In this document: positions 5,618-23,957 of the stretch, piece by piece
How positions within the stretch are numbered: position 1 is the first letter of the stretch
Layout: the number at the start of each line of letters is the position of its first letter
Assembly: GCA_964622195.1 (NCBI GenBank)
Contig: CAZUOQ010000007.1
Span: forward strand, 19,895-43,894
DNA: 24,000 nucleotides
Direction: 5' to 3'
From: an uncultured Methylotenera sp.
GTDB lineage: Bacteria; Pseudomonadota; Gammaproteobacteria; Burkholderiales; Methylophilaceae
Made by a program: the position numbers and the translations under genes
Notes under the pieces: model-generated
The model's input: only the letters and a program-made list of their open reading frames with translations
What the model was told of the DNA's origin: nothing
Databases searched by the model: none

Positions 5618-6307
5618 GTGAAAATTAATCCGAATAAAACAATTTATACGCTGGTTGCCGCAGCATTTGCGACTAACACAGGAGTTGCGAATGCTGCGCT
5701 AGTAAGTGCGTGTACCGGCGTCAGCTTACCAAAATCAGTGGTAACAGACATTGTTGGAACCGCTGTTACTCCTTTGGCCCAAACACTGGATACCGTGTTA
5801 TTCCCGATTACGGGGCTGCTTGGTTTAAGTACAAACCTGGGCACTACTTTAGGCACAATTGCAGCTGGCGATCCCATCGCATTGAATGTGCTGGATACCA
5901 GTGGTAACGTGGTTGACCCGACATTGGATCCAACATGCCAGACAACGGCTACCAGCTACCAGCTGGATACGCCCAAGGGCATTTCATTCGGTGGTAACCA
6001 GATTACCGGTCTGGGTGACGGCACCGTTGCCGATGCCGGCGAGATAAACTCGATTGCCATTGGTAATGCGGCAAGTACTGATGCTGCGGCATTGAATTCA
6101 ATTGCAATCGGCCCAAATGCAACCGTCGGTGCGGCTGGCACTGATTCGGTGGTGATTGGCAGCGGAGCCAGTGCCAACGTGGCAAACAGTGTGGTACTTG
6201 GTGCAGGCTCAACAGCTACCATCGGTGCCCAGACAGATTACAACGCTTATGGATTAACCGCGCCACAAACGTGTGGGCGAAGTTTCAGTAGGTTCCAGCG
6301 GGAATGA
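5618..6307 (+). CDS. Trimeric autotransporter adhesin (YadA/Hia family), N-terminal fragment: signal peptide plus first head. Interrupted by a frameshift and probably the same gene as 6273-7970
   Basis: GTG start. The signal-like N-terminus is KINPNKTIYTLVAAAFATNTGVANA. Hep_Hag-type head repeats are present (NSIAIGNAAS, NSIAIGPNATVG, DSVVIGSGASA, NSVVLGAGSTA). The ORF ends in out-of-frame junk (CGRSFSRFQRE*) exactly where the next frame picks up the expected neck motif. Confidence 0.85.
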   Translation: MKINPNKTIYTLVAAAFATNTGVANAALVSACTGVSLPKSVVTDIVGTAVTPLAQTLDTVLFPITGLLGLSTNLGTTLGTIAAGDPIALNVLDTSGNVVDPTLDPTCQTTATSYQLDTPKGISFGGNQITGLGDGTVADAGEINSIAIGNAASTDAAALNSIAIGPNATVGAAGTDSVVIGSGASANVANSVVLGAGSTATIGAQTDYNAYGLTAPQTCGRSFSRFQRE

Positions 6308-7970
6308 GCGTACCATTACCAATGTAGCAGCAGGCAGTGCCGGCACTGATGCCGTTAACGTGAATCAGTTGCAGGCGGTCAATGATGGTGCCGTGAAATA
6401 TGACACGGGCCTGCTTCTTGAAAAATCACTGATCACACTTGAGGGTGCGGCAACTACCGATGGCGGTACTACCAATGGCACCAGAATTACCAATCTGGCT
6501 AAAGGCGATATTAGCGTCAACAGCAGCGATGCCGTCAACGGCTCCCAGCTTTACAACATCACACAAGGCTTTACAACCAATATTGACAACCTGGGTAACA
6601 GTACCGCAACCAACCTCGGTGGCGGTGCGGTTTACGACCCCACTACCGGCATCATATCGGCACCGACTTATAATGTTTATGGCACCACACAAAATAATGT
6701 AGGTGATGCTATCACTGTTCTGCAAACGAATGCACCTTTGCAATATTCTGATTCTAACGGGGTAGCCACCCCTCTGGTGCCATCCAATGATGTGACTTTG
6801 GTTGGCGCTGCTGCCGGTCCGGTGCGCATTCATAATGTGGCAGATGGTGTTGATCCTAATGATGCTGTTAATATGAGTCAGCTCAGTGCGGTACAAACCG
6901 GTATTACTGATCTTGATGCACTCGCCGTCAAGTATGACAGCTCAACCAAAGATACCATCACTCTGGCAGGTCCAACGTCTACAGATGGCGGCGTGACTGG
7001 CGGCACGACGATAACCAATGTGCATCAGGGGGAGTTGAGCGCGACCAGTACCGATGCCGTGAATGGTGCGCAATTGTATGCAACCAATCAAACCATCCTC
7101 AATATTCAAAACGGCGGCGGTATTAAATATTTCCATGCTCATTCACCAGATTCGGTTGACTCTCAGGCCATAGGCAGCGGCAGTGTAGCAATAGGTTCAA
7201 CTTCAATGGCAACCGGAGCAGGAAGCATTGCTATGGGCTATAAAAGTCAAGCGACTAACACAGGGGCGATTGCGATTGGTGAAGACTCACTTTCCAGTGG
7301 TATCAATTCGATTGCTATCGGTACCGGAGCAGTTGCCACCGGTTCAGTCGCTGTTGGTGCTGGCGCGCAGGCTGGTAACGGTGGTGCCGCGTTTGGTGAC
7401 AACGCGATAGCGCTGACATCGCAACAGGGTACTGCATTAGGTAACGGTGCGACGGTCACTTCTGATACTGGTGTTGCCCTTGGTGCAGGTGCGCAGGCAA
7501 CGAGAGCCGGCATGAATGGCACTACAGAGAAGTACAGCAATGTTGCAGTTACCTCAACTGCGGGTGCGGTATCAGTAGGTTCGGCCGGTAATGAACGGCA
7601 AATCACTAACGTGGCTGGCGGTACTGCAGATACCGATGCCGTTAACGTGCGTCAGCTTGATGCTGCAATAGCGCAGACAAACCAGTACTACAGCAACCAG
7701 TTCTATAATCTGCGCTCCGAAATTGATAAAGTAGATAAAGATGCCAGTGCAGGTTCAGCGGCCTCAATGGCAATGGCCAGTATGCCGCAATCCGTGCTTC
7801 CCGGTAAGGCGATGTTGACTGCAGGTGTTGGACATTATGAAGGCCAGTCCGCCCTTGCTGTAGGTGTTTCTAACTTCTCGGAAAATGGGCGTTGGGTAGT
7901 CAATTTCAATGGTTCAGCCAATACACGGGGCAAGGTAGGGGCCGGTGTTGGTGTAGGTATTCACTGGTAG
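6273..7970 (+). CDS. Trimeric autotransporter adhesin, C-terminal fragment (neck/stalk, second head, YadA-type membrane anchor); continuation of 5618-6307 in a different frame
   Basis: It begins inside the neck motif VGEVSVGSSGNERTITNVAAGSAGTDAVNVNQL (6282-6371). A paralogous copy, VSVGSAGNERQITNVAGGTADTDAVNVRQL, lies at 7569-7658. DAVNG[SA]QLY stalk motifs and a second head (GSVAIG, GSIAMG, GAIAIG, NSIAIG) follow. The C-terminal anchor reads ASAGSAASMAMASMPQ...AGVGHYEGQSALAVGVS...GVGVGIHW. The fragment has no signal peptide of its own. Confidence 0.9.
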   Translation: MGEVSVGSSGNERTITNVAAGSAGTDAVNVNQLQAVNDGAVKYDTGLLLEKSLITLEGAATTDGGTTNGTRITNLAKGDISVNSSDAVNGSQLYNITQGFTTNIDNLGNSTATNLGGGAVYDPTTGIISAPTYNVYGTTQNNVGDAITVLQTNAPLQYSDSNGVATPLVPSNDVTLVGAAAGPVRIHNVADGVDPNDAVNMSQLSAVQTGITDLDALAVKYDSSTKDTITLAGPTSTDGGVTGGTTITNVHQGELSATSTDAVNGAQLYATNQTILNIQNGGGIKYFHAHSPDSVDSQAIGSGSVAIGSTSMATGAGSIAMGYKSQATNTGAIAIGEDSLSSGINSIAIGTGAVATGSVAVGAGAQAGNGGAAFGDNAIALTSQQGTALGNGATVTSDTGVALGAGAQATRAGMNGTTEKYSNVAVTSTAGAVSVGSAGNERQITNVAGGTADTDAVNVRQLDAAIAQTNQYYSNQFYNLRSEIDKVDKDASAGSAASMAMASMPQSVLPGKAMLTAGVGHYEGQSALAVGVSNFSENGRWVVNFNGSANTRGKVGAGVGVGIHW

Positions 7971-8945: not shown

Positions 8946-9062
8946 CGAATCTAACTTTTCATAATTGCAAATACGTCTAATCCAAACCGAGTCTTTGTTA
9001 AGACTGAGGTCGCTAAAACTTAGTAATAAAGGTGTGTTAATTTATTCTTGAGAGGAATAATC

Positions 9063-9560
9063 ATGACTATAAAATCAAAATTTTTTTGTGCATTACTATT
9101 GCTAAGCGCAAGTACTGCACATGCTGCAGATGCTACTGGCAACCTAAGTGTTACAGCAACTGTTACTGGCGCATGTGTAGTGGCAACACTTCCTGTAGCG
9201 TTTGGCCTGTATGACCCTACTGCAGCGACAGATAATACAGCCGGAACCGGCACAGTAACCGTTACCTGTACGCTTGGCACCCCTTATACGGTTGCTCTTG
9301 ATGCCGGCGCTAATGAGAGTGTAGCAGGTGATTTTACTACGCGTCGTATGCTGGCTAACACAAGTGATTACCTTTCCTACCAGCTTTATAAGGAAGTTGG
9401 CCGTACTAGCGTGTGGGGAGATACGGGAACTGACAGAGTTACTGGTCAAAGTGGCCTTGGCCTCCCTCAAGCTATTACGGTTTATGGAACAATTCCTAAA
9501 AACCAAAACGTGGCAGCAGGGGCTTATCTTGATACGGTGCTCGTAACGGTTTCCTATTAG
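9063..9560 (+). CDS. Spore coat U (SCPU) domain pilin, Csu-type major subunit candidate
   Basis: I prefer the ATG at 9063 because it follows gagagga (an SD-like sequence); the ORF track starts at TTG 9048. The signal peptide is MTIKSKFFCALLLLSASTAHA. The mature part has the SCPU pattern: VTATVTGACVV, FGLYDP, TVTVTCT, the YxLY motif (LSYQLYK) and a C-terminal DTVLVTVSY. Confidence 0.85.
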   Translation: MTIKSKFFCALLLLSASTAHAADATGNLSVTATVTGACVVATLPVAFGLYDPTAATDNTAGTGTVTVTCTLGTPYTVALDAGANESVAGDFTTRRMLANTSDYLSYQLYKEVGRTSVWGDTGTDRVTGQSGLGLPQAITVYGTIPKNQNVAAGAYLDTVLVTVSY

Positions 9561-9584
9561 CAAGCAATTACCAGGTTATTTTAG

Positions 9585-10334
9585 GTGAATGTAATGTTAC
9601 GATTTCTTGCTTATACTGTATTTAGCCTGTTTTTGTGTGTTGCTAATGCTGCTGATCTCGCAGTATTGCCGGTAGGGCTGAGTCTTGGTGCCGTCAATAA
9701 TAAAGGCATGATTACAGTGAGTAATCGTGGGAAAGACAGCGTCATCATTCAGGCTGAAACTGTGTCCTGGATGCAGTCTGACGGTCAGAACCAATATGCG
9801 CCGACTCAGGAACTGCTCGTCAATCCACCCTTGTTTACAATTCCGGCGGGACGCTCGCAGGTGGTGCGTGTTGGCCTTCGGCAAGTACAGCCTCTCAAGC
9901 AGGAGATCGCTTACAGACTGTTGTTGCGTGAAGTGCCTAACGCTCCCTCTTTAAGTGAGCAAGTTGACGCAGCCAAGCAAGGGAATATTCGCGTGCTGCT
10001 GCAATTGAGCTTGCCGGTATATATTACGCCGGCAGTGCCGCGCAATCAGTCACAATGGCACGCGCGGTACGACACAAATGGCGCCGTTGCACTGCAACTC
10101 AACAACAATGGCAATGTGCATATACTCGTCAATGAACTCACACTCCGTAATGCAGATGCCGATCAAAATGCGGTGCCTCTTGCTGCTATCAAGGTGAATG
10201 ATGTGGTATTTCCAGGACAAGACCGCAGTTGGAAGATAACCCCTGAAACAAAGTTGCAGGGAAAACGTTTTGTCGTTGACGTGAAAACCGATAAAGGTCA
10301 CCAGAATGTTTCGCTCGACCTTGATCCAATGTAG
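9585..10334 (+). CDS. Periplasmic pilus chaperone (PapD-like / CsuC-type)
   Basis: It has a signal peptide (FLAYTVFSLFLCVANA). Chaperone hallmarks are ITVSNRGKDSVIIQAE, LVNPPLFTIPAGRSQVVRV and YRLLLREVP, in a two-domain protein of about 250 aa. It sits between an SCPU pilin and an usher. Confidence 0.88.
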   Translation: MNVMLRFLAYTVFSLFLCVANAADLAVLPVGLSLGAVNNKGMITVSNRGKDSVIIQAETVSWMQSDGQNQYAPTQELLVNPPLFTIPAGRSQVVRVGLRQVQPLKQEIAYRLLLREVPNAPSLSEQVDAAKQGNIRVLLQLSLPVYITPAVPRNQSQWHARYDTNGAVALQLNNNGNVHILVNELTLRNADADQNAVPLAAIKVNDVVFPGQDRSWKITPETKLQGKRFVVDVKTDKGHQNVSLDLDPM

Positions 10335-12981
10335 AAGAAAAAGCCCAGGTCTCTCAGTTAAAAAAGTTGTATTGGCGCTAGTGTTATTGGGGGTGATGAC
10401 CTCGACTGGCGACATTGACACTATAAGCAGATTGATCCATCGCAATGTTTCAACGGTGCAGAAACCTGTGATAGCCGACGTTAATATCACAGGTGCCCCC
10501 AATGCCGTTGAAGGCAGCCGAAATATGGCAGTTGCTAAGAGAGTGCCAATAGCTGCCGGTCTCAAAGATAAATCCGATAGCATTAATAGCAGTACAGTAA
10601 ATAGCCCCGTAATTGCTGCTGGCAACCAGGCTGATGGCATGAGCGCATCAGCGAACACGACAGGCTATGACCAATCCAGTAACCTCAAAATAAATAACCA
10701 AGCCGAGAGCAGTCATCATGCGAAAGTTGTCGAACCGAACCATACAAACGTGACCGGGGACTCTTTGCTGCTTGCGGTAAATATCAATGGGGTTGAAGTT
10801 GATGGTGTATTTACATTATTAAAAAAGAGTAATGGTGACCTCATGGTTGCCGAAAAAGACTTACTCGGTTGGCGCATAAATACATCAAGCTACAACAAAT
10901 CCTTGATTGAAGGTAAGCCCTATGTCCGAATTGATGACTTGTCTGGCGTCAAATACTATGTTGATGCAGGTACACAGACCCTGATGCTTCTGTTGCCCGC
11001 ATCTGCATTCATGGCAAATGAATTTGATGGTGATGTAAAAAGCCCTCTGGATCTTTATACAACGCAAGCAGGTGGTTTTTTAAATTATGATTTGAACTGG
11101 CAACGTATTCATCACCAGGAAACAGCCGGGGGTCTGTTTGAGATCGGCGCCTTTAATTCGAGTGGTAACGGCACAAATACTGCTATCTGGCGCAGTGGTG
11201 ACGCACAGCGTGGAATGGTGAGATTAGATACCACCTGGAACATAGATATGCCCGGCAAGATGCAGAGCCTGCGCTTTGGCGATGCGATCAGCCGTGGAAG
11301 TAGCTGGGGTCGTTCAGTTCGTTTCGGTGGTGTCCAATGGGGAACTAATTTTGCTACCAGGCCAGATTTCACTACATTCCCTATGCCCACATTACGCGGG
11401 GAGGCAGTGCTGCCATCTACAATTGACCTTTATGTAAATAATACTCGCCGTTTGCAAAGCAATGTGGAATCAGGACCGTTTGATCTTGCCAATGTTCCGG
11501 TAGTGACTGGTCAGGGTGAGCTGCAGCTGGTAGTGCGTGACTTGCTGGGTCGGCAGCAGATTATTACCCAGCCTTATTATGCAAGTCAGAGTTTGCTTCG
11601 CCCAGGCCTACATGATTTTTCGATTGAAGCTGGCGCAATACGAAATAACTACGGGATTGATAGTGCCAACTATGGAAATTTGATGTTAGGCGCAACCGAC
11701 AGATTGGGGCTTAGTCCTACATTCACGAGAGAACTTCGTGCAGAAGTATTAAGTGATCAACAGACTCTTGGTGCCAACGGTGTATGGTTGATGCCTCAGG
11801 TAGGAACATCCTATTTGGGTACACTCAATTTTGGCGCTGCAGTAAGTAATCACTCCGGAAAAGACGGACATTTTGTTGCGCTGGGTACAGAGAGGCAAAC
11901 TCGAAAAATCAGTTACAGCCTGCAGTCGCGGTATGCAGATCGAGATTTCGCCCAGATCGGGCAGCTGGCAAATTCCACTCCCCGCAACACGTTTACAGCC
12001 AGCGTCGGCCTTCCGTGGGCAGGTAACAGCCTTGGCCTCAATTATTTAAGCCAGTCTACCTGGGAGGGGGCTAAAAATCGCATGTTATCTTTAAACCTTA
12101 GTCGTGGACTAGGCAGCTTTGGCAACCTCAGCTTGAGTGCGTTGCGTAACTTTACCAACGAGCCGCACAATAGCGTCAGCCTCATACTCACTATCCCTTT
12201 GGATAGCCGTACCAGTATGAGTTTTGATGCCATTCGACAAGGTGATCTGGCAAGAAATGCCGTACTGGTACAGCGCAATCCGCCGCCGGGTAGTGGCCTC
12301 GGTTATCGAGTGCGTGCGTCAGACAATGATGAATACCTGGCTAGCGCTACAGTAAACACCAATTTTGCAAGTTTTAATGCCGAAACTGCTCAGGCAAATA
12401 GCCAAGAGGGCTATCGTGTCGGTGCCAGTGGTGGCATAGCCGTTGCCGGCGGCGGTATGTTCCTGAGCCGACGTATTGATGACAGCTTTGCCGTTGTCCG
12501 GGTTGATGATTATGCCAATGTACGTGTTTATCGTGAAAACCAGGAAGTCACCCGTACCGATCAATATGGACGCGCATTGATTCCGCATCTGCGTGGCTAT
12601 CAGAAGAATCTGGTCAGTATCGCACAGGAAGATTTGCCATTGGATGCTGAAGTGGATAAACTTGAACTGAGATTGACCCCGGCGCTACGTAGCGCGGTGG
12701 TTCTGGATTTTCCCGTGCGCCGCAGTAGAAGTGCAAGCTTCAGGTTGGTGGATGAAGACGGCAAAACTCCGGCACCAGGCACAATGGTGCAACTGGAGGC
12801 AGATAAACGTGAGTTCCCAGTCGGATATGACGGACGTGTTTTTATCAGCGGCCTTAATATAAATAACCGCTTGTTCAGTGTATGGTCCGGCCGTCGCTGC
12901 GGCCTGGAAATCATCCTTAGTGATACGAAAGAACTCCTGCCAGACCTTGGCACTTTAATCTGCAAAGGCGTGCCCCAATGA
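10306..12981 (+). CDS. Outer-membrane fimbrial usher (CsuD-type) with a long low-complexity N-terminal extension
   Basis: 891-aa ORF overlapping the chaperone by 29 nt. Usher-like blocks begin around LLLAVNINGVEVDGVFTLLKKSNGDLMVAEKDLLGWRI and continue with RLDTTWNIDMPGKMQSLRFGD, FGGVQWGTNF, STIDLYVNN and VVTGQGELQLVVRDLLGRQQ. The start codon is uncertain; the ATG at 10306 gives a basic n-region followed by VVLALVLLGVM. Confidence 0.88.
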   Translation: MFRSTLIQCRRKSPGLSVKKVVLALVLLGVMTSTGDIDTISRLIHRNVSTVQKPVIADVNITGAPNAVEGSRNMAVAKRVPIAAGLKDKSDSINSSTVNSPVIAAGNQADGMSASANTTGYDQSSNLKINNQAESSHHAKVVEPNHTNVTGDSLLLAVNINGVEVDGVFTLLKKSNGDLMVAEKDLLGWRINTSSYNKSLIEGKPYVRIDDLSGVKYYVDAGTQTLMLLLPASAFMANEFDGDVKSPLDLYTTQAGGFLNYDLNWQRIHHQETAGGLFEIGAFNSSGNGTNTAIWRSGDAQRGMVRLDTTWNIDMPGKMQSLRFGDAISRGSSWGRSVRFGGVQWGTNFATRPDFTTFPMPTLRGEAVLPSTIDLYVNNTRRLQSNVESGPFDLANVPVVTGQGELQLVVRDLLGRQQIITQPYYASQSLLRPGLHDFSIEAGAIRNNYGIDSANYGNLMLGATDRLGLSPTFTRELRAEVLSDQQTLGANGVWLMPQVGTSYLGTLNFGAAVSNHSGKDGHFVALGTERQTRKISYSLQSRYADRDFAQIGQLANSTPRNTFTASVGLPWAGNSLGLNYLSQSTWEGAKNRMLSLNLSRGLGSFGNLSLSALRNFTNEPHNSVSLILTIPLDSRTSMSFDAIRQGDLARNAVLVQRNPPPGSGLGYRVRASDNDEYLASATVNTNFASFNAETAQANSQEGYRVGASGGIAVAGGGMFLSRRIDDSFAVVRVDDYANVRVYRENQEVTRTDQYGRALIPHLRGYQKNLVSIAQEDLPLDAEVDKLELRLTPALRSAVVLDFPVRRSRSASFRLVDEDGKTPAPGTMVQLEADKREFPVGYDGRVFISGLNINNRLFSVWSGRRCGLEIILSDTKELLPDLGTLICKGVPQ

Positions 12982-13472
12982 AAAAAATTTTAGTTTCAGC
13001 ATTGGCAATGCTTGCACTGTGCTTGTCACAATCAGCATTTGCGGTTTGTACACTATTGTGTTCGTGTTCAGTAAGCACCAGCCCGGTATCCTTTGGTGTA
13101 TATAACCCGCTTTCATCATCTCCGCTCGACTCTGCCGGTAATGTTCGCGTAACATGTGGCGGGGTTCTAGGCCTGCTGGTCCCCTATAACATTGCCATTA
13201 ATAAGGGAAGTTTCAGCACGAACTTCAGTCCTCGCCAGATGGCCAGCGCCGGCAATAAACTGAATTATGACCTCTATACATCAAGCGCACACGCCGTCAT
13301 TTGGGGCGATGGCAGCGGAAGCACACAGTATGTTTCCGGCGCTATAACTATCGTGTTGTTAGGTGGCACTTCTAATGACCATGCTGTTTATGGACGTATA
13401 CCCGGTAGCCAGTTCACAGTTGTGCCCGGCAGCTATGGCGATACAGTTACGGTAACCGTGACCTACAACTAG
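12978..13472 (+). CDS. Spore coat U (SCPU) domain protein, second pilin or tip subunit of the Csu-type operon
   Basis: ATGA start/stop overlap with the usher (12978-12981). The signal peptide is MKKILVSALAMLALCLSQSAFA. The SCPU pattern includes SPVSFGVYNP, VRVTCGG, LNYDLYT and DTVTVTVTYN. Confidence 0.82.
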   Translation: MKKILVSALAMLALCLSQSAFAVCTLLCSCSVSTSPVSFGVYNPLSSSPLDSAGNVRVTCGGVLGLLVPYNIAINKGSFSTNFSPRQMASAGNKLNYDLYTSSAHAVIWGDGSGSTQYVSGAITIVLLGGTSNDHAVYGRIPGSQFTVVPGSYGDTVTVTVTYN

Positions 13473-17556: not shown

Positions 17557-19038
17557 TTATGTACCGCAAAAAGTTTTGTAATCATTATCAAATCCCGGTT
17601 GCGGTGCCTGCATGAATTCGGCGTATTGTGCGGGCGGGCTAAAGGGTTTTGAAATGGCAGCTAGTAGTTTTTGCAGTGGCTGTAAATCATCGTGATCAAC
17701 GGCTGCGTTCAGTGCATCTTCAACCAAATGATTGCGCGGAATAATCGCCGGGTTGGTTTGTTCCATCAAGCCTATGCTTTGTTCAATCGTTTCAGCCTGT
17801 CTGGAAAGCCTTGCTTCCCATTGCTGCATCCAGTTTTTGAACCCGGCATCATGGTAAATTTCCATTGTTTTTAACGAGTCTTTTCCTAATGCCCTGAATG
17901 TATTGGTGTAATCAGCCTTGTGTTTCTGCATATACATTAACAGATCTTCTGCCAGCTTTAAATCATCTGCCTCTGTATTAAACAGGCCCATCTTTTTACG
18001 CATGCCCGTAAGCCAGTAATCTAAAAATTTGGCCGGAAATTTCCCAAGTAAATCTTCTGCAATAACAATAGATTGGCCTTCATCTGCGTGTAACAGCGGT
18101 AACAGTGCTTCAGCGAAGCGATATAAGTTCCAGTGCGCTATTGGCGCCTGATTGCCGAACGCATAGCGTCCCTTGCTATCAATCGAACTGAATACAGTAG
18201 CAGGGTCGTAACTGTTCATAAAAGCGCATGGGCCATAATCAATAGTTTCCCCACAAATACTCATGTTATCTGTATTCATTACGCCGTGGATAAAACCAAC
18301 CTGCATCCATTGGGATATAAGCGCTGCCTGTAAATCGATTACTTTTTCCAATAGTTGTGCATATTTATTTTCCGTCACAGCAATTTCCGGAAAATGTCGA
18401 TTTATCGTGTAATCGGCTAATTCGGTTAATGCCTCATGATTTTGAATGGCAGATGCAAACTGAAAAGTTCCAACTCTGATGTGGCTGGCTGCAACGCGGG
18501 TTAATATGGCTCCCGGATAAGCATCATCGCGATAGACAGTTTCACCTGTTTTTACAATCGCTAAACTCCTTGTGGTGGGAATGCCGAGTGCATACATCGC
18601 TTCGCTGATAATGTACTCTCGCAACATAGGGCCCAGCGCTGCGCGTCCATCGCCCGAACGAGAGTATGCGGTCCTTCCGGAACCTTTCAGTTGAATATCG
18701 ACGCGTTTGTTTTGCGGCGTGATGTGCTCACCCAGTAATATGGCGCGGCCATCTCCCAGAATATTGAAGCCACCGAATTGATGGCCGGCATAAGCCTGGG
18801 CAATTGGTTCTGCGGCTATATATACTGAATTGCCGCTGAGAAATTCGGCACCCTCTTTCTCAAGAATCTCTGGGTCTAATCCTAAAGTTTTGGCTAATGG
18901 CTTGTTGATTAACAATAGACTAGGATTTTTAACCTTTTCTGGCTGTTGCTTCTGGTAGAGAACTGATGGCAGTTGTGTATAGCTGTTATCGAACTTGAAG
19001 CCGGAATGTCCCGATTTGAATTGCGCAGGTGTTTTCAT
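17557..19038 (-). CDS. selO: Protein adenylyltransferase SelO (YdiU/UPF0061 family pseudokinase-fold AMPylase)
   Basis: 493 aa with strongly conserved family blocks: AQAYAGHQFGGF, LGDGRAILLGE, LKGSGRTAYSRSGDGRAALGPMLREYIISEAM, HIRVGTFQ, GFIHGVMNTDNMSICGETIDYGPCAFM and IIPRNHLVE. Confidence 0.93.
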   Translation of the reverse strand: MKTPAQFKSGHSGFKFDNSYTQLPSVLYQKQQPEKVKNPSLLLINKPLAKTLGLDPEILEKEGAEFLSGNSVYIAAEPIAQAYAGHQFGGFNILGDGRAILLGEHITPQNKRVDIQLKGSGRTAYSRSGDGRAALGPMLREYIISEAMYALGIPTTRSLAIVKTGETVYRDDAYPGAILTRVAASHIRVGTFQFASAIQNHEALTELADYTINRHFPEIAVTENKYAQLLEKVIDLQAALISQWMQVGFIHGVMNTDNMSICGETIDYGPCAFMNSYDPATVFSSIDSKGRYAFGNQAPIAHWNLYRFAEALLPLLHADEGQSIVIAEDLLGKFPAKFLDYWLTGMRKKMGLFNTEADDLKLAEDLLMYMQKHKADYTNTFRALGKDSLKTMEIYHDAGFKNWMQQWEARLSRQAETIEQSIGLMEQTNPAIIPRNHLVEDALNAAVDHDDLQPLQKLLAAISKPFSPPAQYAEFMQAPQPGFDNDYKTFCGT

Positions 19039-19183
19039 CTTTAAAATTGTTTACTAAATTAGTAGGATATTAAGCAAATAAAAACGTGCTAGCAACTAAA
19101 TTTATATCAAGGCGTTCAGGAAACTTATCAGCGTTGGTACGCGTTGAATGCATGAATGGTGGGCAAAATGATGATAACAACTG

Positions 19184-19245
19184 AAAAAATATGAAAACTA
19201 TAGGCGATGCAGGATTTCTAATTTCATCGTAAGCATCGCCTATAG
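19184..19245 (-). terminator. Probable rho-independent terminator downstream of the LuxR-type regulator gene
   Basis: The 13-bp stem is ctataggcgatgc (19198-19210) / gcatcgcctatag (19233-19245). On the minus strand it is followed by ttttcatatttttt, the complement of 19184-19197. The loop is long at 22 nt. Confidence 0.5.
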
Positions 19246-19298
19246 TAGTATAGGAAGCGATAGTATAGGAAACAACTCTGGAAAGCTGTAATTACCGG

Positions 19299-20018
19299 TT
19301 ACTGTGTTCTACGTTCATACATTATTGGAATAATATTTTTTCGTCTTTCCATACTGGGTGAATGTTCAAGCACCAGCTTTATCAGCTCAGCCTGACGACG
19401 CGTTCCGGTTTTCGCTAATATATCTTTAATCTGGCTATAAGCCGTGTTGATCGAAATGCCGTACTTGGCGGAGTATTCTGCTGCGGTCATACCATTGGTG
19501 ATTGCCAGCGTCAGGCGGGCCTCTGCTTTAGTTAATCCGAAAATTCGGGCTACATCAACTGATGATTGCTCATTATTCAAATTCGATTCAAAAATGAACA
19601 TGACGACTCCGGATGCATCTATGCCAAATGCGGATTTTTCGAGTCGCTGCAGCATCACACTATTTTTTTCGTCTCTGATAGTAACGTTAAGGTGAATTTC
19701 ATTGGCACCTTGGTTATTCAGTAACATATCTATTGCAGTTCGGAGTTCAGTTTGTGATTGCCAGCTAAAGCATTCTTCAATAAGGTCATCACCCATAAGA
19801 ATAAACTCTTCCGGCAGTTTCAGTTTAATTCTTGCGAGTTCGTTAAGATGGCTCAGATTGCTGTTGTTATCAAAAAAAACCAGCCCGACACCAAAAACAG
19901 AATAAGCATGATCCAGTGCAGAATTTAGCGCATAAACCTTACTGACTTCACTTACAGAACATTGCCCGCAAAAGCAGGTTCTGCACCTTTCTATAGGCAC
20001 AGCTTTCATCATATTCAT
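19299..20018 (-). CDS. LuxR/GerE-family transcriptional regulator with an uncharacterised N-terminal domain and a Cys4 motif
   Basis: The C-terminal HTH reads LTKAEARLTLAITNGMTAAEYSAKYGISINTAYSQIKDILAKTGTRRQAELIKLV. The N-terminus carries CRTCFCGQC (19959-19985). The middle 150 aa is PAS-like or unknown, and there is no receiver domain. Confidence 0.85.
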   Translation of the reverse strand: MNMMKAVPIERCRTCFCGQCSVSEVSKVYALNSALDHAYSVFGVGLVFFDNNSNLSHLNELARIKLKLPEEFILMGDDLIEECFSWQSQTELRTAIDMLLNNQGANEIHLNVTIRDEKNSVMLQRLEKSAFGIDASGVVMFIFESNLNNEQSSVDVARIFGLTKAEARLTLAITNGMTAAEYSAKYGISINTAYSQIKDILAKTGTRRQAELIKLVLEHSPSMERRKNIIPIMYERRTQ

Positions 20019-20226
20019 TTAGATTCTCCCCTAAGTTTTTATATATTTTTTTATTATTGACTATAACAATTTAGTCTTTTGTTTTTTTATGGAAACTAAC
20101 AGAGATAAACCCTCAAGACAATCACCCTTTTGGGGGTGTGGTATTGAGGGTGATGCAATTAATCTAAATAATGAAGGGTGTGATAATCGGGGTTGATGAT
20201 ATTTGGATCATAAATGTGATGCGGTG

Positions 20227-21213
20227 TTAAGGTGCGGAGCAAGTGCCGCCACCACTCGATATGACTGACTGTGTGCCATTGAGCATGACGTGACTGGATT
20301 CTCCGGCACGCAATCTTATGGTGCTGGTAGCGCTTTGTACGCTAACCTCACCTGAGATTACTTTTGTATAAGTACCAGCATCAAGTGCGCCTTCTTGTTG
20401 CAGCAGATGTGTTATCAAAAAGTCGGTGCCAATGACTCGAATGGTAGATGCTGGAGTACGGAAACTGTATTTTTGCGGATTAAGTTTTGATATTTTTCCG
20501 GATACAGAGCGAATATCACCTTTTTCCAGCGTAATTAAACTCCGGTTTGCATCTGGCTGCTGCGCTGAATAGTTGTAATCAAGCAGGCTTATTTGTGTGT
20601 CTTTGAGTACATATAGCATCGCGCCATCTGCAAACAGGATTTTTGCTTTAGCATCTTGTTTGGTGGTAATTTTATCGCCGGCACAAATTTCATCGCCACT
20701 TGCTAGTTGAATTTTTTGTTGGGAGCCGTCTTCTACGGTTACAACGCCATTTACATTGATTAGCGTACCGGCTGCCATGATACCTGTGCCGCCAATTCCA
20801 CCTTGATGGGTGGTGGATTCATGGCCGGTGCCACCAATACCTCCGGGGGGTATTGTCGGTTCGTGGCCGGTGCCAGCGATGCCGCTATTGTCACTGGTGC
20901 GGATTGAGTGGTTGTGTTCTGTGCCACCAATGCCCCCGGGCGGGATGGTTGTGTCATGGCCGGTGCCAGCGATGCCACTATTGTCACTGGTGCGGATTGC
21001 ATGGTCGTGTTCTGTGCCGCCGATGCCGCCTGGCGGTATGGTAGTTTCGTGCCCAGTGCCGCCGATTCCGCCAGTTGAGATGGGGTCTTGATTGAGAATA
21101 GACGATTTAACAGCACTGCAAGTGCGTGCGACGTGAGCGGCTGCAAACGATAAGCCAGGATAGCTCAGGATCAGTGAGAACGATATTGCCAGCGATAGGT
21201 GACGTAGGCGCAT
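20227..21213 (-). CDS. Exported FecR-domain protein with an N-terminal His/Gly-rich tandem-repeat array
   Basis: The signal peptide is MRLRHLSLAISFSLILSYPGLSFA. Residues 48-144 form a repeat array (GI[GA]GT[GE]H x6, with a 31-aa unit IPPGGIGGTEHDHAIRTSDNSGIAGTGHDTT). A FecR-like beta domain follows (GDEICAGDKITTKQDAKAKILFADGAMLYVLKDTQISL ... STIRVIGTDFLI). There is no transmembrane anchor. The start lies 6 nt after the upstream gene's stop. Confidence 0.75.
   Translation of the reverse strand: MRLRHLSLAISFSLILSYPGLSFAAAHVARTCSAVKSSILNQDPISTGGIGGTGHETTIPPGGIGGTEHDHAIRTSDNSGIAGTGHDTTIPPGGIGGTEHNHSIRTSDNSGIAGTGHEPTIPPGGIGGTGHESTTHQGGIGGTGIMAAGTLINVNGVVTVEDGSQQKIQLASGDEICAGDKITTKQDAKAKILFADGAMLYVLKDTQISLLDYNYSAQQPDANRSLITLEKGDIRSVSGKISKLNPQKYSFRTPASTIRVIGTDFLITHLLQQEGALDAGTYTKVISGEVSVQSATSTIRLRAGESSHVMLNGTQSVISSGGGTCSAP
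20782..21072 (-). repeat. Coding tandem repeat with a 93-bp period (about 3.3 copies) inside the FecR-domain gene
   Basis: ggccggtgccagcgatgcc[g/a]ctattgtcactggtgcggattg occurs at 20865 and again at 20958, an offset of exactly 93 bp. The two full units encode 31 aa and differ at 4 residues. Partial units flank them. Confidence 0.9.
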
Positions 21214-21219
21214 TAAAAT

Positions 21220-22062
21220 CTATCCGTTAGATTCGTCTTTTTTATCTTCAGTCTGGCTGCGGCTACTGTAGAAGAAAGTGCCGAAATGGACTCTGAACTC
21301 AGGCCTGCCAGCTTCGTTGTAATGCTTCTCTTTGTGCTGTATTGCTTGGTTGTTGATTTGTTTTAATGCATGCATGGCAGCTTTTCTGGCGGCAGCGGCA
21401 ATTGCCTTTACATCCTCTTCAGTCAAGCCTTCATGCCAGACAAAGCGGTCAAGGAAAGGTGGCTCACCACCATACAGATTGTGCTCTGCTGCCGAGATAT
21501 GGTCATGTATGTTTTGACCAAAGAAATGCGCCTTTTCATCCAGATCATCGGCCGGAATCAGAGATTCGACAATTAAATGCACCATGCCGTCATCTGTAAG
21601 TTTTACTATGCCGCGGTTTATGCATTCATCCATTAATGCCCGCGGGTGAATATCATTAGTTAAGCTTTCAGCCAATGAGAAAAATGAAATCTTATGATCC
21701 GAGTGAGGGTTTCTGGGAATAGGTTTAGGCTCACCGTGCTGATCGACCAAGTCCGGTGTGCCCAGCCATTGCGCAATCAAGTTTGCAATTAAACCTTGTT
21801 GCCGTCCCGCAGTTTTTTCTGGAGCTCGTCCTAACAGCCGACGCACATCCTTACGGTGAACTCCTGTGAGCAATGCAATTCTGCTGTCTGTTTGTGATTT
21901 TCCATTGACTTTGAATTCATCTTTTGCAACAGAAACAAAAGCAGCTTTAAGCATTTCCGACAGGTTGCGGTGATCGATCCCGAAGTGAATGCACAATCTG
22001 GCAATTGGCTTGAGGCAATGCTCAAGTGCGCTAACTATGGATGATGGAGTTTCTATTGACAT
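21220..22062 (-). CDS. Conserved hypothetical cytoplasmic protein with an N-terminal HTH-like segment (resembles the family I recall as DUF6502)
   Basis: 280-aa ORF with no signal peptide. The N-terminus LKPIARLCIHFGIDHRNLSEMLKAAFVSVAKDEF...DSRIALLTGVHRKDVRRLL looks like a helix-turn-helix module. It is co-oriented and nearly abutting with the FecR-domain gene. The family name comes from memory and is unverified. Confidence 0.6.
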   Translation of the reverse strand: MSIETPSSIVSALEHCLKPIARLCIHFGIDHRNLSEMLKAAFVSVAKDEFKVNGKSQTDSRIALLTGVHRKDVRRLLGRAPEKTAGRQQGLIANLIAQWLGTPDLVDQHGEPKPIPRNPHSDHKISFFSLAESLTNDIHPRALMDECINRGIVKLTDDGMVHLIVESLIPADDLDEKAHFFGQNIHDHISAAEHNLYGGEPPFLDRFVWHEGLTEEDVKAIAAAARKAAMHALKQINNQAIQHKEKHYNEAGRPEFRVHFGTFFYSSRSQTEDKKDESNG

Positions 22063-22233
22063 GGTGATTTGTAAGTCGTTCCGATATTTAGTTTAGCTCT
22101 TCAGTACATACAAATGTTCTTAAGAACATTATTACACAAAAAAATCAAATGCGGTATTTTTTCCCGTTATTTTTTAAATTAATTTTGGATCGATCATTTT
22201 AGTGTGCTTAACATTAATTTACAAAAAATAAAT

Positions 22234-22261
22234 TTGACAATGTAAATGGAGGTGCTACTAT
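22234..22261 (+). promoter_or_regulatory. Candidate sigma70 promoter for the 22325 ORF
   Basis: TTGACA (22234-22239), a 16-nt spacer, then tactat (22256-22261). It lies in the AT-rich divergent intergenic region about 65 nt upstream of the ATG. Confidence 0.4.
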
Positions 22262-22324
22262 TTTATTTAAGTGGGAAAAAATCCCGTTTAATTTAAAGAA
22301 ACCATTAAGTCATGGGGCGTCATT

Positions 22325-22660
22325 ATGAGAATCAAGTATCTGAATAATTTAGCAGAAATCATCGTCAGCATAGATGAGGGTAAAAATATTACTGATGCAA
22401 ATATCGTGAGCTTTACTGATAGGGGGCTTCGGTTAATCGGGCAAATGAAACGGTTGGGGCTGGATATTGGAACCTTGCAGGAAACTATGGCTGGCATGCA
22501 GATGATGTGTGGTAACCGGGCTGCACTGACTGAGTTGATCGATATGGCCCATGAAGAAATTTCGCGTCTTTTGGGAAGTGATGCCTGGCGTGTTTATGGT
22601 TGTGATGAGGGTGGTTGGTTTTATCAGGACTGTAAGGTTTGTGAAAGAGCAGCAGCTTAA
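22325..22660 (+). CDS. Hypothetical small protein (111 aa) with a C-terminal Cys cluster
   Basis: The ORF is transcribed divergently from the HTH-like/FecR operon. I recognise no family. The C-terminus has C-x9-C-x2-C (GCDEGGWFYQDCKVC). Coding status rests only on ORF length and position. Confidence 0.45.
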   Translation: MRIKYLNNLAEIIVSIDEGKNITDANIVSFTDRGLRLIGQMKRLGLDIGTLQETMAGMQMMCGNRAALTELIDMAHEEISRLLGSDAWRVYGCDEGGWFYQDCKVCERAAA

Positions 22661-22991
22661 CGCTTTTGCATATGAGCTTTAGGCTGGCGTCTATCGTTTA
22701 AGGTAAGTGCTTTTTTTATTTGATTGTTATCAGTTGCTTGGGAAGCTGAAATTGAAATTTAGTTGAATTTGTCACCAATATTGATGATGACGCTCAATAG
22801 TGTAAGCAATGATAATCAGCGTGTGAAATTTTTTGGATTAAATCTTACGGCTGTAGTTTAAATAGGCGGGTAACTAAAATGAAATTTGACCGTGATGGAT
22901 TTGTCGAGGCGCTTGCATCGTGGATGCGTTGGCGCGGACACTCTATACCGCATAACATGCTGTCACAGCGATTCCCCTTGCCTGGTGGTGA

Positions 22992-23957
22992 GGTTACCAG
23001 TTCGGCGTTTCGCTGAACATCAACAGCCCTTTGAAAATCGGTGATCAGCTCGCTATCCGTACCGTGGGCAGCAATGGTGATCTGTTATATGGGCGTCTTT
23101 CTTATCAGATGCCGGTAGGCGCTGACGGTTTGCGTATCGGCGCTGCCTATTCACATAATCATTACCAGTTAGGCCGCGAGTTCAAGTCGCTGGATGCGTA
23201 TGGCAGCAGCGAAACCGTCAGCCTGTTTGCGACTTATCCCTTGCTGTTAAGCCAGACCGGTACATTGTTTGGCACACTCGCCTATGAAAACAAAAAACTG
23301 CATGATCGCATGGACAGTGTATTAACTAATACGGAAAAACAGGTGCAGCTCATGAGCCTCGGTGTAAGCGGCGAGTCTCATGATATGGTCAATGGCGGTG
23401 GGCGAACCATGTTTGATGCATCGTTGTATGCCGGTCATCTGAATATGGATGCTACAGCGCGTATGCAGGATGATTCAAGTGCACGCAGCAGCGGCGACTT
23501 TGTTAAAGCGGCTTACATGGTCAACCGCCTGCAACGTATTACTGACCAGGATACGCTGTCGATGATACTTTCCGGTCAATGGGCGGCGAACAACCTTAAC
23601 TCTTCCGAAAAGTACAGCCTGGGGGGCGTCTATGGGATACGCGCTTACCCCCAGGGTGAGGCCAGTGGTGATATGGGCGCTATGCTTAAGCTTGAACTGG
23701 CTCACCATTTCACGCCGCAGCTGAGAGGAACAGTGTTTTATGATTATGGGCACATCAGAATTAATCAGGATGATTTTTCGGAAGCTGATAATACACGTAC
23801 CCTGTCCGGCGCAGGACTGGGGTTTAATGCGGCACTTGCGGGCTGGCAATTGGATAGTTATGTGGCATGGCCGCTGCAGGGCGGTGACCCATTATCTGAA
23901 CCGGAGTCATCAGTGCATACGCCGCGGCTATGGATGCAGATGTCCGGGGATTTTTGA
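22992..23957 (+). pseudogene. ShlB/FhaC/HecB-family two-partner-secretion outer-membrane transporter, 5'-truncated (beta-barrel part only)
   Basis: From a stop at 22989-22991 the frame reads GYQFGVSLNINSPLKIGDQLAIRTV..LLYGRLSYQMPVGADGLRIGAAYSHNHYQLG...KYSLGGVYGIRAYPQGEASGD...GAGLGFN, typical of the TpsB barrel. About 320 aa remain, whereas I recall full-length members being about 550 aa. There is no signal peptide or POTRA region. The first in-frame start is TTG 23031. Upstream sequence turns AT-rich and non-homologous. Confidence 0.8.

Follow-up and report, generated by a model that had tools for sequence, protein, structure and literature searches.

The stretch analysed here, referred to below as the window, comprises 24,000 nucleotides (nt) from an uncultured Methylotenera sp. 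(assembly GCA_964622195.1, contig CAZUOQ010000007.1, positions 19,895 to 43,894). It carries two adjoining genes, gene A and gene B, publicly annotated as 'DUF6502 family protein' and 'FecR family protein', respectively. Gene A encodes a cytoplasmic protein with a probable helix-turn-helix (HTH); gene B encodes an exported protein in which GIGGTG repeats precede a FecR-type beta-sandwich (Table 1). The explanation favoured here, with a probability of roughly 0.6, is a coupled operon of a DUF6502 autoregulator and an exported repeat protein that works with an outer-membrane barrel.

The junction of the two co-oriented genes reads TAG-ATTTTA-ATG: the stop codon of gene A (21220-21222) and the start codon of gene B (21211-21213) are 6 nt apart, as stated in the initial annotation of this DNA. 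Relative to the orthologues in a metagenome relative that is 93% identical (locus L081, the reference for dN/dS in the window), gene A has a ratio of nonsynonymous to synonymous substitution rates (dN/dS) of 0.015 and gene B one of 0.080. Both are therefore real, functional genes under strong purifying selection, and chance open reading frames (ORFs) are excluded. The hairpin found 3′ of gene B is followed by the U-rich stretch UUUAUCUCUGUU; together they probably mark the end of the two-gene transcript. A sigma-70 promoter scan of positions 19000-23100 returned 6 sites versus 8.7 expected from shuffled sequence. As there is no excess, promoter calls in the window carry no evidential weight.

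The product of gene A matches the Pfam family DUF6502 (PF20112) over residues 11-267 (E 1.3e-29, 103.3 bits, cutoff 27), which refines its earlier description as an HTH-like protein. Its highest 19-residue Kyte-Doolittle mean is only 1.04, hence the protein has neither a signal peptide nor a transmembrane segment. The putative HTH, DSRIALLTGVHRKDVRRL, fits the classical pattern in having Ala and Gly at positions 5 and 9, respectively, and hydrophobic residues at positions 4, 10, 15 and 18. It is nearly invariant across a 19-member alignment (A1) whose overall identity is only 35-73%; S60, R61, T66, G67, V68, H69, R70, D72 and R75 are invariant. The AlphaFold2 model is helical, with a confident N-terminal bundle (mean predicted local distance difference test score, pLDDT, 75; predicted TM-score, pTM, 0.48). 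Helices H59-66 and H70-77 coincide with the motif (pLDDT about 86-92), and residues 127-163 form a small helix-helix-strand-strand unit that resembles a winged helix. D187-H188 and N195, in the C-terminal half, are also invariant in A1. A permissive Pfam scan of 19 DUF6502 members returned nothing other than DUF6502.

The product of gene B has one hydrophobic stretch (residues 8-26, Kyte-Doolittle 1.61), beyond which no segment exceeds 1.32. From hydropathy, the protein is predicted to be exported by Sec and to lack a transmembrane helix after the signal peptide. Of the 108 residues from 41 to 148, 29 are Gly, 17 Thr and 9 His; the protein has three strict copies of G[IVLM]GGTG plus variants. 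The corresponding DNA is a tandem array (20828-21071; period 93 nt, 2.6 copies according to TRF), and residues 35-145 are disordered in the AlphaFold2 model (pLDDT <50). GTGH[ED] is conserved in the repeats of the Methylotenera clade. The number of repeat copies differs between close relatives (289-357 aa).

Residues 146-320 are modelled as a beta-sandwich with pLDDT >90. The FecR-like domain, signal peptide, His/Gly repeats and absence of a membrane helix proposed for this protein in the initial annotation were all recovered by composition, hydropathy, profile and structure prediction. Residues 180-290 match Pfam FecR (PF04773) significantly (E 6.3e-11, 43 bits, cutoff 24). Foldseek found structural similarity of the sandwich to 4m0n, a putative anti-sigma factor (E 1.4e-7), and to 6ovk_R, the signalling domain of PupR (E 2.3e-6). 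It also gave a local match of 74 residues to the anchoring domain of the MpIBP adhesin (5ix9, E 6.7e-4, TM-score 0.85 normalised to the target). The gene B family profile (alignment A3) matches 5ix9_A with E 9.7e-8, and gene B scores 26.4 bits, under the cutoff of 50, with the NCBIfam model of the LapA retention module (NF033682). Methylotenera-type partners (A3) conserve three cysteines: C32 after the signal peptide, C177 (GDxIC) and C325 (C-terminal GGTCxxP). A disulfide between the two ends of the protein could, judging from these positions, close the repeat region into a loop. A LapG-type di-alanine site was considered and rejected, IMAAG being conserved only at AG.

A genome scan with the DUF6502 alignment detected relatives in at least 560 species, and 80 genome loci were kept, mostly from alpha-, beta- and gammaproteobacteria and including cultured Bradyrhizobium. 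The homologues found number 270, the closest being from Methylotenera; in a profile search of the full library, the family forms 5048 clusters at 50% identity, whose members are all single-domain proteins of about 280 aa. The module is defined here as a DUF6502 gene followed directly, on its own strand, by a gene whose product has a signal peptide, then G[IVLM]GGTG repeats, then a beta domain. A reading frame with this motif lies directly 3′ of the DUF6502 gene in 69 of 79 loci with enough sequence, and the motif is almost absent elsewhere in them. The window pair, with its 6-nt gap, fits this layout; the most frequent arrangement is a 4-nt ATGA overlap (18 loci).

The downstream partners start with a signal peptide or a lipobox (lipobox-like in 23 of 62), carry a Cys within the 40 residues before the first repeat in 48 of 62 cases, and contain 1-7 repeats followed by beta domains. 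According to Pfam, the beta domain is DUF5666 in 47 of 64 partners and FecR in 12 of 64. Hence the feature conserved family-wide is the GIGGTG repeat after the signal peptide and not the FecR domain. The repeat is mostly GIGGTGI, GIGGTGA or GIGGTGN; His at this last position is not conserved. In both the DUF5666 and the FecR types, the last GIGGTG runs into 'I.G.I..(F)....VNG'. These alike junctions suggest a common N-terminal module with exchangeable beta domains. In the DUF6502 tree, the FecR-type loci comprise a Methylotenera clade, a Gallionellaceae/Sulfuricella clade and one singleton; the tree tracks partner type, so regulator and partner have been inherited together. The two genes adjoin in 12/12 FecR-type genome loci and in all Methylophilaceae contigs with enough sequence, which bears out the gene pairing first noted in the window.

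Other arrangements of DUF6502 genes were also found. Short DUF6502 paralogues of 168-185 aa (L005:5986-6498; P0079-P0105, e.g. in Methylotenera sp. G11) consist of the N-terminal HTH half only, are about 61-65% identical and have no GIGGTG partner downstream. The metagenome-assembled genome 'Methylotenera sp. AG31' carries the full pair (L001) and such a short paralogue (L005).

A 17-bp palindrome, GTGGGAA-N3-TTCCCAC (canonical sequence GTGGGAAWWWTTCCCAC / GTGGGAATATTTCCCAC), was found upstream of DUF6502 genes in alpha-, beta- and gammaproteobacteria. Its 7-mers GTGGGAA/TTCCCAC occur in 59 of 78 upstream regions versus 26 of 390 control segments. The aligned sites form a perfect 7-3-7 palindrome, GTGGGAA-WWW-TTCCCAC, which often occurs twice, about 65 bp apart. 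When up to 2 mismatches are allowed, 104 occurrences were counted in 34.5 kb of upstream zones versus 24 in 835 kb elsewhere, a roughly 100-fold enrichment. In an independent test on 120 metagenome contigs selected solely by an exact match to the palindrome, 43 were found to carry DUF6502, the site typically lying 40-150 nt upstream of the gene in the expected orientation. In gammaproteobacterial loci, the proximal copy is degenerate, with 6-8 nt between its end and a TATACT/TATAAT element, and the distal copy is perfect and occupies the 17-bp spacer of an opposite-strand TTGACG...TAnnnT promoter. This placement suits a factor acting on core promoters. The palindrome was also considered as a promoter of an extracytoplasmic function (ECF) sigma factor (GGAAC...CGTC) and rejected because the spacing is far too short.

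In the window, the two operator-like sites between gene A and the divergent gene form an inverted repeat (I4; 14 nt with 93% complementarity) whose arms are separated by 107 nt; both lie beyond positions 20227-22062, the part that the initial annotation describes. Site 1 is GTGGGAAAAAATCCCGT, with 3 mismatches to GTGGGAANNNTTCCCAC; site 2, on the minus strand, is AACGGGAAAAAATACCGC, with 5 mismatches. The alignment of the divergent intergenic regions of Methylotenera (A4) shows two conserved GGGAAAAAAT-type elements in inverted orientation.

The sites vary together with the recognition helix. Loci with the helix GVHRKDV have GTG[GT]GA-type sites in 42 of 43 cases, and loci in which Lys is replaced by Arg (G[VI][HNQ]RR[DE]V) have GTGTG[CT]-type sites in 7/7, in two separate clades. 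The co-varying pair is Lys/Arg at residue 71 and the sixth base of the half-site. The window agrees with the first group (HRK helix, GGGAA-type sites); in its relative L087, a copy departs from the palindrome by 1 mismatch. Such co-variation suggests that the protein binding these sites is DUF6502 itself.

From the footprint and the co-variation, DUF6502 is probably a dimeric HTH transcription factor that binds a GTGGGAA-N3-TTCCCAC-type palindrome in its own promoter region. It would control its own operon and, in the Methylotenera clade, probably also the divergent 111-aa gene. A different role, that of a cytoplasmic chaperone or enzyme for the exported partner, with the palindrome bound by another factor, appears very improbable. 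The tight translational coupling, the conserved His/Asp in the C-terminal half and the lack of a significant match of DUF6502 to any known DNA-binding family would agree with such a role. It is opposed by the co-variation of the operator with the DUF6502 recognition helix, by the specificity of the palindrome for DUF6502 loci, and by short N-terminal-half paralogues that exist without any partner; moreover, Sec substrates seldom require a dedicated 280-aa cytoplasmic factor.

Further palindromes were observed away from DUF6502 promoters. In seven contigs (L126, L127, L142, L144, L167, L176 and L200, e.g. L176:2546-3562), an exact palindrome lies 170-190 nt 5′ of secreted-protein genes. The encoded proteins have long Gly/His runs (GGGGHGGGGSGG...) followed by DAARDAA repeats, and no DUF6502 gene is found on these contigs; such genes may also belong to the regulon. 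Among the gammaproteobacteria, one DUF6502 clade without GIGGTG partner (L006:7124-7612, L007:7110-7775, L020:7046-7717) has a second perfect palindrome about 190 nt past the DUF6502 stop codon; the gene after it encodes a lipoprotein whose N-terminal linker is Gly-rich and which also has a beta-rich domain. In six other loci (L095, L125, L128, L159, L169 and L204), the predicted DUF6502 ATG is preceded, at a distance of only about 7 nt, by a strong -10 element (TATACT or TATAAT). The -10 element being so near the ATG suggests leaderless transcripts in these gammaproteobacterial loci.

FecR-type anti-sigma regulators consist of an N-terminal cytoplasmic anti-sigma domain, a single membrane helix and a periplasmic FecR domain. 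Their C-terminal STN-like subdomain (FecR_C) touches the transducer, and genes for an ECF sigma factor and a TonB-dependent receptor are adjacent. Gene B could on this model be a FecR-type anti-sigma regulator of cell-surface signalling with gene A as an unusual pathway partner, given its Pfam FecR match (E 6.3e-11) and the fold matches to the PupR signalling domain and the putative anti-sigma factor. What gene B shares with FecR/PupR (PF04773; 6ovk, 4m0n) is the periplasmic beta-sandwich, with Foldseek matches (E 1e-7 to 2e-6) that span about 140 residues. Unlike them, it has no cytoplasmic anti-sigma domain or membrane helix, being soluble and exported, with a signal peptide and a disordered repeat array at its N-terminus instead. 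It also lacks the FecR_C/STN-like subdomain: no Pfam family other than FecR matches, and the protein ends 8 residues past the sandwich. Neither an ECF sigma factor gene nor a TonB-dependent receptor gene is found in the window, in the 80 genome loci or in the Methylophilaceae contigs. The absence of both beside the pair, already noted in the initial annotation, thus extends to the related loci, none of which is an ordinary FecI/FecR/TonB-receptor locus. In most family members, DUF5666 replaces FecR. The gene pair is not a FecR anti-sigma system; the missing domains and the missing ECF sigma and TonB genes refute this membership and make the anti-sigma explanation extremely improbable. A distant FecR homologue, P0209, was also rejected as a member of the module, since it lacks GIGGTG repeats and adjoins a CHASE2 cyclase. 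At L213:4677-9733, a distant FecR homologue lacking GIGGTG repeats lies between a TPR protein and a CHASE2-guanylate cyclase, a different FecR-domain setting that has nothing to do with DUF6502.

The Leptospira proteins LipL45 and Lsa33 (NF033165, NF047849) are exported and carry a FecR domain outside an anti-sigma context, as gene B does, and gene B matches them weakly (E 2e-10 and 2e-6). Its scores are far under the cutoffs (40 vs 420 bits and 27 vs 350). They differ from it in having neither GIGGTG repeats nor a DUF6502 partner, and in belonging to a different phylum.

Genes for outer-membrane barrels usually accompany the pair. A gene for a protein of about 275 aa with an aromatic C-terminal residue is found near it in at least 31 genome loci, and several of these proteins pass the Pfam threshold of the outer-membrane barrel family Phenol_MetA_deg (PF13557). 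Ad-hoc hidden Markov models detected a barrel or TPR-barrel gene in 43 of 80 genome loci; of 16 metagenome contigs that were obtained independently and have at least 2.5 kb downstream, 14 carry one. Downstream of long FecR-type partners (L017, L018, L027, L080, L212) lies a gene for a TPR-plus-barrel protein that has a match to SlipAM. The gene order in L106, L117, L159 and L204 is DUF6502, short GIGGTG protein, MetA-like barrel, TPR-barrel, giant protein with N-terminal FecR. In the Methylotenera clade, the barrel is of the ShlB/TpsB type, intact and POTRA-bearing in L081 (572 aa, POTRA_2) and L087 (512 aa), and decayed in the window, L001 and L003.

Since a barrel gene usually accompanies the pair, a role of gene B at the outer membrane is proposed. 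Gene B, which is predicted to be exported by Sec and consists of a flexible GIGGTG stretch and a folded, retention-module-like sandwich of the FecR type, would act at or with an outer-membrane beta-barrel (MetA-like, TPR-barrel or, in Methylotenera, ShlB-type). Gene neighbourhood makes this a possible but tentative assignment. In the window, the ShlB-type barrel was lost by deletion while the pair stayed under strong selection. The gene A/gene B pair is best explained as a two-gene, translationally coupled operon, and it belongs to a widespread proteobacterial module. The pair, its conservation, its domains and the operator with its co-variation were demonstrated in the sequences; autoregulation is inferred, and the outer-membrane link more weakly so.

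Several points weigh against the explanation favoured here. The model of DUF6502 has no significant match among solved structures (Foldseek; the best are winged-helix regulators, E >=0.16), and its sequence profile has none among Protein Data Bank (PDB) sequences. With no solved structural relative, DNA binding rests on the motif pattern, the footprinting and the co-variation, and the latter on two independent clades only. The operator copies of the window are degenerate (3 and 5 mismatches), and their spacing to a putative -10 is unlike that of canonical loci. Many loci have no barrel partner, and the partners that do occur come from three unrelated families. The only barrel gene near the window pair is a truncated ShlB remnant; as the pair remains selected beside this pseudogene, it has no strict need for that barrel. 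DUF6502 is not mentioned in the literature searched.

Two-partner secretion (TPS) pairs an intact POTRA-bearing TpsB with an adjacent cargo gene whose product has a TPS domain. Gene B might by analogy be the cargo or accessory of a TPS-like ShlB/TpsB transporter, the window being a dying system whose transporter was deleted. In its favour, L081 and L087 have an intact, POTRA-bearing ShlB divergent to the pair, and the window, L001 and L003 keep remnants. The initial annotation had placed exported FecR-domain proteins next to ShlB-type transporters, often with CHAT-domain proteins. The first half of this holds for the Methylotenera clade only, other barrels occurring elsewhere; CHAT was not found in about 130 loci. 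Against a TPS-like system, a TPS (haemagglutination-activity) domain is missing from gene B, the pair and ShlB are separated by a type 1 secretion system in L087 and L088, and the pair is strongly selected despite the dead barrel. The history of the remnant also differs from that of its neighbours (dS 1.96 vs 0.44-0.69). Taken together, a TPS-like system is quite improbable.

Slam (SlipAM, PF04575) and TpsB systems resemble the module in that the gene of an exported or lipidated protein adjoins that of a specialised barrel: Slam-like TPR-barrels accompany long FecR-type partners (L017, L018, L027, L080, L204), and ShlB accompanies the Methylotenera type. They differ in that gene B has neither a TPS domain nor a lipobox, that the barrel family of the module is not constant, and that a cytoplasmic HTH protein in the same operon is foreign to them.

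A fourth comparison concerns adhesin retention. LapA-type retention modules are N-terminal parts of giant type-1-secreted RTX adhesins under LapG/LapD control. The LapA module anchors the adhesin in the outer-membrane pore LapE (bioRxiv 10.1101/198937). The first half of the gene B beta domain resembles the LapA/MpIBP module (NF033682; 5ix9) in profile and fold. A folded, plug-like domain is likewise joined to a flexible glycine-rich stretch, outer-membrane channel genes are nearby, and type 1 secretion genes adjoin the pair in the relatives L087 and L088. Gene B differs in being Sec-exported and not type-1-secreted, in its size (328 aa, not giant) and in the position of its flexible part, which is N-terminal to the domain and not C-terminal as in the LapA type. 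RTX, LapG and LapD were not found in the window. In sum, the pair has a fold in common with FecR/PupR, local sequence with the LapA/MpIBP module and a general gene order with Slam and TpsB systems, and it lacks what defines each of them.

An extended version of the proposal, which is speculative and regarded as unlikely, is that the GIGGTG repeats would be a tether or thread through a small outer-membrane barrel and that the FecR/DUF5666 domain would be a periplasmic plug or anchor. The module would then be a Sec-dependent counterpart of LapA retention, and DUF6502 a new family of transcription factors with a phylum-wide operator, through which it would control a hitherto unrecognised envelope system.

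The composition of both proteins leaves room for a metal-related role. In a metal-handling module, the Gly/His repeats would bind metal in the periplasm, DUF6502 would be a metal-responsive regulator and the barrel would be a channel. The repeat region of gene B has 9 His per 108 residues and GTGH[ED] is conserved in the Methylotenera clade; DUF6502 has 18 His residues in addition to the invariant D187-H188 and N195; and the palindrome precedes genes of secreted Gly/His-rich proteins in 7 soil contigs. Family-wide, however, His after GIGGTG is not conserved. The loci show no consistent link to a metal transporter, an efflux pump or a known metal regulator, and no metal-binding family match was found. 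This alternative is considered improbable as an account of the module, although the invariant residues of DUF6502 and the His-rich repeats of the Methylotenera clade would be compatible with some involvement of metal.

The module is assembled from known parts. In the literature and curated models searched, neither the conserved pairing nor its GIGGTG signature was found, nor were the association with barrels and the co-varying operator. There, DUF5666 appears as incidental table entries only, and nothing relevant was found on GIGGTG or on the combination of FecR, CHAT and ShlB; NCBIfam has no model for the DUF5666 partners or the MetA-like barrels. For DUF6502, a sizeable family without published function, a testable hypothesis is now available: a 17-bp operator, a residue-to-base co-variation and a regulon of exported glycine-repeat proteins and small barrels. 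The label 'FecR family protein' can mislead, the FecR fold being here an interchangeable beta module in a secreted protein. If the exported partner is displayed by or plugged in a barrel, this would represent a new type of protein organisation at the outer membrane of Gram-negative bacteria.

Table 1. Features of the gene A/gene B locus in the window. Positions are those of the window; the strand is given where one applies.
Feature	Position	Strand	Basis
239-aa protein, Cys4 motif, weak LuxR-type HTH; clade-specific companion	19299..20018	-	after gene B in L081-L091
Terminator-like hairpin 3′ of gene B	20109..20151	-	fold energy -22.7 kcal/mol, z -3.0, then UUUAUCUCUGUU; terminator scan match
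Gene B: exported GIGGTG-repeat protein, FecR-type beta-sandwich, 328 aa	20227..21213	-	ORF, Pfam, AlphaFold2, Foldseek, dN/dS
FecR/retention-module-like beta-sandwich, gene B residues 146-320	20254..20778	-	pLDDT, Foldseek, profile
Disordered Gly/Thr/His-rich repeats, gene B residues 41-145, GIGGTG/GIAGTG cores	20779..21093	-	TRF, pLDDT, composition
Sec-type signal peptide (predicted), gene B residues ~1-26	21136..21213	-	sole hydrophobic stretch, basic N-terminus, SFA/AAA end
Gene A: DUF6502 protein, 280 aa, cytoplasmic, probable HTH operon regulator	21220..22062	-	Pfam PF20112, hydropathy, AlphaFold2, dN/dS
Helix-turn-helix motif, gene A residues 59-77 (DSRIALLTGVHRKDVRRL)	21832..21888	-	alignment A1, AlphaFold2 helices, co-variation of residue 71
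Degenerate operator-like site 2 (minus strand AACGGGAAAAAATACCGC), 5 mismatches	22151..22167		inverted partner of site 1; columns conserved in A4
Operator-like palindrome site 1 (GTGGGAAAAAATCCCGT; 3 mismatches to GTGGGAANNNTTCCCAC)	22271..22287		pattern scan; kept in Methylotenera relatives
Divergent 111-aa gene; clade-specific companion	22325..22660	+	same position in L081, L084, L088; dN/dS 0.06-0.10
Deletion scar	22873..23015		blastn, window vs L081
ShlB/FhaC-type (TpsB) barrel gene remnant, without signal peptide and POTRA domains	22995..23957	+	Pfam ShlB, tblastn

The neighbours of the pair are those described in the initial annotation: a Cys-motif protein with a weak LuxR-type HTH, a divergent 111-aa protein and a decayed ShlB. 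The divergent protein has no family match in Pfam-type scans. The 239-aa protein has an N-terminal CxxCxCxxC (C12, C15, C17, C20); its matches to LuxR-type HTHs are marginal (E about 1e-3) and Pfam GerE gives no match. Its gene is conserved only within Methylophilaceae and is replaced by a transposase gene in L003. The block conserved within Methylophilaceae comprises, in this order, the divergent 107-111-aa gene, DUF6502, the FecR-repeat gene, the 239-242-aa Cys4/LuxR-like gene and SelO.

The ShlB remnant of the window covers only positions 72-310 of the Pfam ShlB profile, and only residues 98-417 of the L003 protein are covered by tblastn. At the deletion scar, about 140 nt take the place of about 1.4 kb of L081 sequence, which holds a 186-aa gene and, of shlB, the 5′ 770 nt. 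Relative to L081:3977-5695, the remnant has a dS of 1.96, a nucleotide identity of 74% and a dN/dS of 0.07; the flanking genes have dS values of 0.44-0.69 and 88% identity. This higher divergence indicates a different evolutionary history, such as recombination, then recent truncation.

In L087:161-6525 and L088:645-5396, a type 1 secretion set is divergent to the pair (TolC-like OEP, 708-aa ABC exporter, AprE-type membrane-fusion protein); in L087, the ShlB gene follows this set. Its presence beside the pair is worth recording given the likeness of gene B to the retention module of type 1 adhesins.

Elsewhere in the window are genes for a hybrid histidine kinase, a second kinase, a LuxR-type response regulator, an OmpA/BamE protein, EptA, DUF2141, a TPR protein and SelO. 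The region is also rich in genes of surface structures. A YadA-type trimeric autotransporter adhesin gene with head, stalk and anchor domains (6273-7970, plus strand) and a chaperone-usher pilus cluster with a PapD-like chaperone, an usher and SCPU-type subunits (9048-13472, plus strand) are located upstream of the pair in the window.

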